Notes: generated by a model from the letters alone, not told the origin. Shown: positions 36,945 to 37,470, numbered from the whole stretch's first letter. The stretch is DNA of 62,507 bases, filler included, from Bonamia ostreae (GCA_040357525.1; 16 parts of 16 records of this genome joined end to end with filler, not necessarily neighbours in it); one strand, 5' to 3'. Numbers and translations: made by a program.

Positions 36945-37470
36945 TTTACTTTTATCCGTCGTTCGGTGGACGCTCATAAAATATTTCCGCGTGGAAAGTC
37001 ATCTGCGCGGAAAGTCTTCTTTCGGGATAAACATAAAATGTCAAAGTCATTTCCGGCGTCTTCTCATAAAAAGCGGTTTCAGTGTTGCGGATCGGTGTTG
37101 AGATATGATTGGTAAAGTAAAATTGCGTCTCATAAATATATAACAAAAATGTTCGCAATGAAGCCATCCTCGCGAGAGGATCTGGTTGAGCGGACGGCGG
37201 CCATGCCACTTAAAATGGACAACTTAACAGTCCTCTCCCCAAAATGGGCAACTTAACATTTCTGCGGGGCATGACAGAGGATGGATTTTCGCTGGTATAC
37301 AAAACGGAAAATGACGACATGAAAATGTTGTTATGTAAAACCGTCGGGCCTCGAAAACTCGGTCGTTCGAACCAAGTGCGCGCATTCGTGTGCGCATTGG
37401 CTTCTAATACCGGTGTTGTCGTTTCCAACTGATGTCAAGACGGGAACGACAACAGTTGGATTTGATTTTT
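36945..37470 (+). ncRNA. Candidate structured non-coding RNA or retroelement-derived RNA, family unknown
   Basis: Stacked hairpins with G-U pairs on the + strand, GCGA/GAAA/UUCG tetraloops, a kink-turn pattern at 37151-37195, and a homologous core at 45965-46135. Confidence 0.6.

Follow-up and report, generated by a model that had tools for sequence, protein, structure and literature searches.

A + strand-structured, transcribed non-coding element between PRP18 and an RGS-domain gene of the oyster parasite Bonamia ostreae

The DNA analysed here is a stretch of 62,507 nt (the window) from Bonamia ostreae (Haplosporida, Rhizaria), a parasite of oysters, and the subject of this work is an element lying in the spacer between PRP18 and a gene coding for an RGS-domain protein. 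Our results show that this is a real non-coding element, structured on the + strand and transcribed. A preliminary description made from the sequence had delimited a structured RNA-like stretch at 36945-37470 that matched no known family, and had proposed for it a new non-coding RNA (ncRNA), a divergent telomerase RNA or the ribozyme-like leader of a retroelement. That description was largely right: a structured element outside the known families is supported by its non-coding nature, its + strand structure, its cover in a cDNA-derived contig and the lack of a match in Rfam. It was confirmed in part only, since the motifs and the + strand fold stood, but a helix enclosing a repeat, an alternative pairing at the 3' end and the local folding scores did not bear it out. 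As to what the element is, the best lead is a family of repeats: we tentatively prefer, at somewhat less than an even chance, to read 36945-37491 as a diverged member of a modular family of structured RNAs with dispersed copies, either related in kind to short interspersed nuclear elements (SINEs) and to the SIDER repeats of Leishmania or a scattered copy of a small ribonucleoprotein (RNP) RNA, transcribed within the spacer. The telomerase idea is not supported.

Folded as a whole, the 526 nt of 36945-37470 are more stable on the + strand than their dinucleotide shuffles, which already allow for composition (z -4.48, none of 100 shuffles as good), and the - strand reaches z -2.57. The picture of a region structured throughout is weakened at local scale, however, because the sole strong outlier among windows of 150 nt is 37323-37547 (z -3.3 and -4.7 on the + strand, -2.8 and -4.4 on the - strand), while the others range from about 0 to -1.4 on the + strand. 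The global score is therefore to be taken as the sum of separate hairpins. Contiguous hairpins of at least 9 bp with loops of 3-12 nt are four on the + strand and none on the - strand, because each of the four holds at least two G.U pairs. Both hairpins of at least 9 bp with a 4-nt loop inside the element carry GNRA or UNCG loops; of the 54 such hairpins in the rest of the window, counting either strand, none does. Altogether there are five well-formed + strand hairpins, three of which are capped by GNRA or UNCG loops.

Among these parts is the hairpin at 37151-37195, which had been described as a textbook kink-turn (k-turn). Simple k-turns combine a Watson-Crick canonical stem (C-stem), a 3-nt bulge, tandem G.A/A.G pairs and a non-canonical stem (NC stem), and the predicted hairpin fits this consensus. 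When both strands of the window (~125 kb) were scanned for a C-stem of at least 5 bp, a 3-nt bulge, GA and an NC stem of at least 4 bp followed by a second GA, five sites were found, and the sole G+C-rich and fully closed one was 37150-37196, with a C-stem of 7 bp and an NC stem of 5 bp by sequence pattern. Its pair probability is 0.5-0.63, and a rival pairing of 37161-37171 with 37277-37287 reaches 0.37, which weakens the picture first drawn of it. The k-turn hairpin is likely to be a docking site for a protein of the L7Ae/Snu13 type.

All the motifs first described lie where they had been placed, though not all of them are predicted to pair. The upstream 36984-37013 hairpin and the CATAAA words (36975, 37032, 37065 and 37131) are present, and three of the four matches to the longer CTCATAAA word in the whole window cluster in the first part of the spacer (Table 1). 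Both tetraloop hairpins were found as described, the 10-bp GAAA hairpin with pair probabilities of 0.94-1.0 and 0.65-0.84 in its outer helix, and the 10-bp UUCG hairpin with its UNCG loop. The words CATGCC (37202-37207) and GGCATG (37268-37273) do flank an 18-nt repeat (at 37212 and 37241), but the helix that they were thought to form has a pair probability of 0.02. At the 3' end, 12 of the 13 pairs of the 13-bp helix have probabilities of about 1.0 and the outermost 0.41; the words CCAACTG (37425) and CAGTTGG (37453) are there, yet a further hairpin, 37456-37491, occupies the 3' arm of their alternative pairing and leaves it with a probability of about 0. The T-rich end lies inside this same hairpin.

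The stretch is non-coding, and a protein pseudogene is not what it represents. None of the five open reading frames (ORFs) of the region has a Pfam match at the curated cut-off, the only row being PH_8 (E 0.096; 13.4 bits where 30 are required). No homologue of a 62-aa + strand ORF was found by word search, and the longest frame of the - strand (160 codons when its single TAA is ignored) gave 0 HMMER matches among 1.84 billion representatives. Insertions or deletions of 1 nt separate the window from contigs of its own locus at 37126 and 37321, and from other contigs aligned there at 37397 and 37426. The part called block B (37274-37311) was also considered as the start of a gene family, at ATG 37281, and this was rejected, as the frame in the window stops after 15 codons.

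Transcription and variation of the spacer

Contigs of four sequencing runs (X1-X4) were compared with the window, and X3 with the DNA runs. The PRP18 contig of X3 is spliced, lacking four very short introns (36 nt, 35897-35932; 27 nt, ~36009; 25 nt, ~36179; 76 nt, 36256-36331) that are kept in the DNA runs, and GT..AG ends are given for the two of them listed as joints; X3 is therefore derived from cDNA. One X3 contig of 387 nt spans 37127-37513, through the T5 run and the hairpin at 37456-37491, so that the element is represented among transcripts, and the spliced PRP18 contig extends to 36991, at least 82 nt beyond the stop codon. X3 cover is not listed at 36992-37126 and 37514-37532, but these holes prove nothing, because both coincide with clusters of variants where contigs break. 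The depths of the X3 contigs are 2055 for PRP18, 244 for the element, 419 for the RGS gene and 1207 for a contig that joins 37189 to 37288; the same joint has DNA depths of 8.51 in X1 and 3.99 in X4, close to those of Bonamia contigs, and these depths, one figure per contig, were not used to rank expression or copy number.

The element is physically joined to both neighbouring genes and is not an assembly chimera, since DNA contigs of two studies extend from 37127 to 38286 and from 37127 to 39000, and two variant contigs at 36962-37156 overlap both sides. Variation within the locus fits the + strand structure, though the variants are too few to prove it. Six single-nucleotide polymorphisms (SNPs) and one 1-nt deletion fall in 36992-37126, and two of the SNPs, 36992 T>C and 37004 T>C, occur in the same variant contigs and turn both G.U pairs of the 36984-37013 hairpin (36992-37005 and 36993-37004) into G-C pairs. 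Other variants lie in loops, namely a 1-nt deletion at 37321 in the GAAA hairpin, and A>G at 37428 with an extra A after 37426 in the 13-bp hairpin, while those at 37248/37249 are in the repeat-bearing stretch, outside the well-supported helices. Taken together, the tetraloops, the consensus k-turn, the strand asymmetry and the change of wobble into Watson-Crick pairs suggest that RNA structure has been selected on the + strand. Just past the element, the A/T-rich stretch 37514-37532 holds a cluster of variants (in X1, three SNPs and a 5-nt insertion); it looks unconstrained, which would place there the right-hand limit of the conserved part.

Recurring blocks and known RNA families

Each of the four runs has other contigs that agree with short blocks of the element (85% identity or more) before passing into unlike flanks. 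The recurring blocks (Table 1) are found in 5-10 other contigs per run. Matches that begin at block B (37274-37277) number 10 in X1, six in X2, five in X3 and six in X4, all ending at 37311, and the upstream flanks of these contigs are alike (agreement 0.62-0.76) and contain a TATAAAA-type word. A perfect tRNA-type A-box word stands in the flank of a contig sharing 37374-37428, and a B-box-like word with a T run after it in the flank of another, sharing 37358-37397. A contig in each of X1, X3 and X4 joins 37189 directly to 37288, skipping the 98-nt repeat-bearing stretch, and in one X2 contig similarity to the window is still recognisable after 37428. Since its modules are found elsewhere in other combinations, the element is a mosaic.

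Searches in other sequence collections returned no relatives from prokaryote genomes, JGI metagenomes or viral contigs (IMG/VR). An 18-mer of block B had 12 matches in prokaryote genomes, all by chance (26-46 of 71 flanking identities), and 0 in IMG/VR, and a 20-mer had 0 in JGI metagenomes. The gapped k-turn pattern had 86 matches in metagenomes, all G+C-rich and bacterial-looking, and none of the 25 best-folding ones inspected forms the hairpin; its two matches in viral contigs are both due to chance, and the three viral matches to an 18-mer of the UUCG hairpin have unlike flanks.

Comparison with known RNAs was equally negative. Rfam 15 gave no family at gathering score across the whole window, and at E <=10 the sole match was mir-21, a chance hit with 15.2 bits against a gathering score of 52; the families covered include snRNAs, SRP, RNase P/MRP, U3, telomerase RNAs, ribozymes, group I/II introns and rRNA. 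ARAGORN found 0 tRNA or tmRNA genes, and the best A- and B-box words carry two mismatches each and stand 181 nt apart. Several further likenesses were considered and dropped, having no Rfam support and lacking the neighbouring features that they require: U4/U6 pairing, U3 box A, the 3' half of 5S RNA, group II domain V (a GNRA loop, a 2-nt bulge and AGC at the base of the stem), the sarcin-ricin loop (of which the k-turn hairpin has an 8-nt word), the selenocysteine insertion sequence (SECIS) and, for block B, spliced-leader RNA.

Structurally, the closest analogy would be to the k-turns that L7Ae/Snu13 (15.5K) binds in box C/D RNAs and in the 5' stem-loop of U4, with which the element shares the layout, including a 3-nt bulge (here AAU) on the 5' strand and closure as a hairpin. 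It differs from them in an NC arm of 10 bp that carries a UC bulge and ends in a GCGA loop, in the lack of any match to Rfam models of U4, U3 or box C/D RNAs at E <=10, and in having no guide region between its two GA strands. When U4 small nuclear RNA was considered specifically, the k-turn stem-loop was present, the Rfam U4 model did not match and no canonical Sm word was seen by eye.

In function, the closest analogy may be to the short interspersed degenerate retroposons (SIDER1/2) of Leishmania, which by description are likewise about 0.5 kb long, non-coding, dispersed and placed after coding regions, with short conserved hallmark blocks within diverged copies. To our knowledge, SIDERs contain no k-turn or tetraloop hairpins; moreover, no parent long interspersed nuclear element is known in Bonamia, and block-sharing contigs are about ten per run here, not thousands. 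In PMC5509151, PMC2943621 and PMC2689281, SIDERs of Leishmania 3' untranslated regions (UTRs) are presented as degenerate retroposons whose RNA structure matters for function. Like tRNA-derived SINEs, the blocks are dispersed, modular and carried in RNA, and two of the block-sharing contigs have an A-box or B-box-like flank, whereas the copy in the window has no tRNA-like head, A-rich or simple-repeat tail or target-site duplication. Literature searches found no published work on ncRNA of Bonamia or other haplosporidians.

Locus and genomic setting

Separate contigs of ~3.9 kb make up the window, strung together by paired spacers of 44 N, with four runs of 100 N besides, and the contig of the element is 35298-39108; genes outside these limits are therefore not its neighbours. 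The placement between PRP18 and the RGS gene given in the preliminary description was correct, with Pfam matches on both sides of a 742-nt spacer in which the two genes converge. The PRP18 ORF at 36343-36909 is 100% identical to a Bonamia ostreae protein at NCBI, and the nearest other PRP18 proteins have 77% identity (Logan) and at most 54% (JGI). The last RGS exon covers positions 65-110 of the 117 of Pfam RGS (E 8.9e-06), and positions 4-64 are coded in 37789-38211. The B. ostreae assembly, as described in PMC11069148, separates genes by a median of 218 bp and contains 33.3% G+C and 4.33% repeats; in the first 580 nt of the spacer G+C is 41-47%, against 17-30% in nearby non-coding stretches, and the + strand of the element is rich in G and T.

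Table 1. Coordinates of the spacer element, its parts and its surroundings in the window
Feature	Position	Strand	Remarks
N runs (examples)	35198-35241 and 35254-35297; 39109-39152 and 39165-39208		
PRP18, last exon	36343-36909	+	Left neighbour; stop codon ends at 36909; Pfam Prp18, E 1.6e-58
CTCATAAA words (three)	36973, 37063, 37129 (span 36973-37136)	+	Each after CG(Y); variable 5' part
Contiguous hairpins of at least 9 bp	36984-37013, 37076-37104, 37311-37334, 37375-37398	+	
Upstream hairpin	36984-37013	+	12 bp, 6-nt loop, two G.U pairs
TATATAA, TATA-box-like word	37137-37143	+	8 nt upstream of the k-turn stem; read from sequence
Predicted k-turn hairpin	37151-37195	+	From sequence pattern, pair probabilities and window scan
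k-turn C-stem	37151-56/37190-95	+	Bulge AAU, 37157-59
k-turn tandem G.A pairs	37160.37189 and 37161.37188	+	
k-turn NC stem	37162-66/37183-87	+	UC bulge, 37181-82
k-turn upper stem	37167-71/37176-80	+	GCGA loop, 37172-75
Repeat-bearing stretch	37190-37287	+	98 nt; 18-nt direct repeats 37212-37229 and 37241-37258, spacing 29 nt
Block B	37274-37311	+	38 nt; common to many other contigs; start (37277-37287) can pair with 37161-37171
Outer helix and GAAA hairpin	37304-37344	+	4-bp ACGG/CCGU around the 10-bp hairpin 37311-37334
Block D	37358-37398	+	Near-palindrome GGTCGTTCGAACC, then UUCG hairpin 37375-37398; pair probabilities 0.54-0.79
13-bp hairpin	37414-37454 (arms 37414-37426/37442-37454)	+	15-nt loop; -20.0 kcal/mol
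A/U-rich hairpin	37456-37491	+	Contains T5 run 37466-37470; folds on both strands
Recurring blocks (38-55 nt)	37153-37191 (k-turn hairpin); 37274/6-37311 (block B); 37358-37397; 37374-37428	+	
RGS-domain gene, last exon	37652-37798	-	Right neighbour, convergent; stop codon 37652-37654

Several further observations concern the surroundings. The 3' flank of the RGS gene has an exact 16-nt direct repeat (37579-37594/37608-37623) with a spacing of 29 nt, the same as that of the 18-nt repeat of the element (37212/37241), and a 10-nt repeat occurs at 37556 and 37592. Near the left end of the contig, at 35335-35450, the window and the DNA-run contigs differ at twelve single bases, mostly G>T or C>A, which may be an assembly error at the contig end or a divergent allele. 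Upstream of PRP18, an ORF of 125 aa on the - strand (35351-35728) resembles mitochondrial ribosomal protein L55, but only below threshold (E 0.085). Other contigs of the window contain tandem repeats at 12684-13028 (122-nt unit, 2.8 copies, 94% identity) and 45291-45700 (210 nt, 1.9 copies).

Nature and meaning of the element

The modules recur beside different flanks and are differently combined, and this favours a dispersed family over a unique gene. On this reading a structured repeat, or an equivalent copy of a small-RNP RNA, would have landed in the 742-nt spacer and would be transcribed within it; the k-turn hairpin would dock an L7Ae/Snu13-type protein, the stable hairpins would build a compact RNP or act as a structured tail, altering the fate of the carrier transcript, and the 98-nt stretch with its 29-nt duplication would be an insertion specific to this copy. 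The idea of a ribozyme-like leader or SINE gains indirect support from the recurring blocks, but not in its particulars. Several results weigh against the dispersed family as a whole. At the element there was found no reverse transcriptase (RT) ORF, ribozyme family, poly(A), A-rich or simple-repeat tail or target-site duplication; a tRNA-like head is missing, with 0 ARAGORN genes and A- and B-box words of two mismatches each; and the other 58 kb of the window hold no second copy of any of its parts. The block-sharing contigs may belong to the oyster host or to another organism of the sample, the contigs carry no information on strand, ends or expression level of the transcript, and PMC11069148 reports only 4.33% of repeats for B. 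ostreae. Moreover, intact tetraloop hairpins and structure-preserving SNPs would suit a working ncRNA gene equally well.

Such a gene, an independent and functional small ncRNA of a new family with paralogues in Bonamia, occupying ~37145-37491 (about 320-350 nt), promoted by TATATAA at 37137 and binding an L7Ae/Snu13-type protein at its k-turn, is possible and comes next in our estimate. All of the structural evidence (z-score, hairpins, pair probabilities, tetraloops and k-turn) applies to it as well, TATATAA stands just upstream and the T5 run near the end, and the other block-B contigs have their TATAAAA-type word ~25 nt upstream of the block. Variant positions are also sparser in 37157-37513 (4 per 357 nt) than in 36962-37156 (7 per 195 nt), and other contigs with the k-turn or block B occur in the cDNA-derived run too. 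However, blocks that combine differently beside unlike flanks do not form one conserved architecture, the cDNA contig passes the T5 run to reach 37513, block B has a T4 run of its own (37286-37289), and no Rfam family matches. TATA-like words are also common in DNA as A+T-rich as that of this genome, and a function of the word at 37137-37143 would be conjectural. It is rather unlikely that the element is a cis-acting structured 3' UTR, be it a long + strand UTR of PRP18, with the CTCATAAA words as 3'-end signals and the hairpins controlling the fate of the mRNA, or simply the overlap of two convergent UTRs. The spliced PRP18 contig with its extension past the stop codon points in that direction, as do the position of the structure on the PRP18 strand and the clustering of the three CTCATAAA words just past the stop, and the fact that cDNA contigs end only at variants of the DNA runs (36991/37127 and 37513/37533) suggests that the whole spacer is covered. 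Still, 742 nt is long beside the median of 218 bp given in PMC11069148, the contigs give neither strand nor ends, and the UTR of a single gene leaves unexplained the blocks that are common to many contigs.

Less probable again, and to our mind improbable, is that the spacer is neutral and owes its hairpins to chance or to a strand bias in the mutation of DNA palindromes, or else that the sequence is foreign and comes from the host. In most of the region the local z-scores do not stand out, a G- and T-rich + strand favours G.U pairs, and contigs with A-box or B-box and T-run flanks resemble SINEs or tRNA-type genes and could be host DNA. Dinucleotide shuffles already account for composition, though, and decay of palindromes would not be expected to leave GNRA or UNCG loops on both long tetraloop hairpins together with a full consensus k-turn; the G+C content of 43-47% exceeds the 17-30% of non-coding stretches nearby, and the element is linked to the RGS gene by DNA contigs of two studies and to PRP18 by the overlapping variant contigs. 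The divergent telomerase RNA of the preliminary description, possibly processed from the PRP18 transcript, is the least credible of the proposals and very improbable. Its length class, hairpins, upstream TATA-like word and T-run end do recall the RNA polymerase III-type telomerase RNAs of plants and ciliates, and its position after an ORF the fungal ones; PMC8287931 treats the former and states that telomerase RNA was not confirmed in Rhizaria as of that paper, and PMC9564094 reports a fungal telomerase RNA cut from an mRNA. But none of eight telomere motifs, including CCCTAAAA of the related Plasmodiophora, gave a permutation-plus-one template match on either strand, the single CCCCAAAA word has U at either side, and no telomere-like tandem array from which the real repeat could be learned is present in the window. 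A telomerase RNA gene is single-copy, whereas several other contigs repeat parts of the element. A long template formed by the repeat of 29-nt period was likewise unsupported.

A more speculative proposal, which we put forward as doubtful, is that the element and its relatives are a new haplosporidian-specific family of k-turn ncRNAs, absent from Rfam, which would form RNPs of the Snu13/L7Ae type with modular hairpins, some copies being expressed from within the 3' flanking DNA of protein genes; a still bolder form, with less likelihood, would make the element the missing telomerase RNA of Rhizaria, cut from the PRP18 transcript. Were the element an ordinary decayed repeat, its interest would be modest. 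Non-coding sequence makes up about 68% of the B. ostreae assembly, and the role of its non-repetitive part in these parasites is described as unclear in PMC11069148. A transcribed and structured RNA with a consensus k-turn, from a recurring family, would offer a first handle on this 'dark matter', and could represent a parasite-specific RNP, a SIDER-like regulatory module of 3' UTRs or a repeat of use as a diagnostic marker for this regulated pathogen of oysters.
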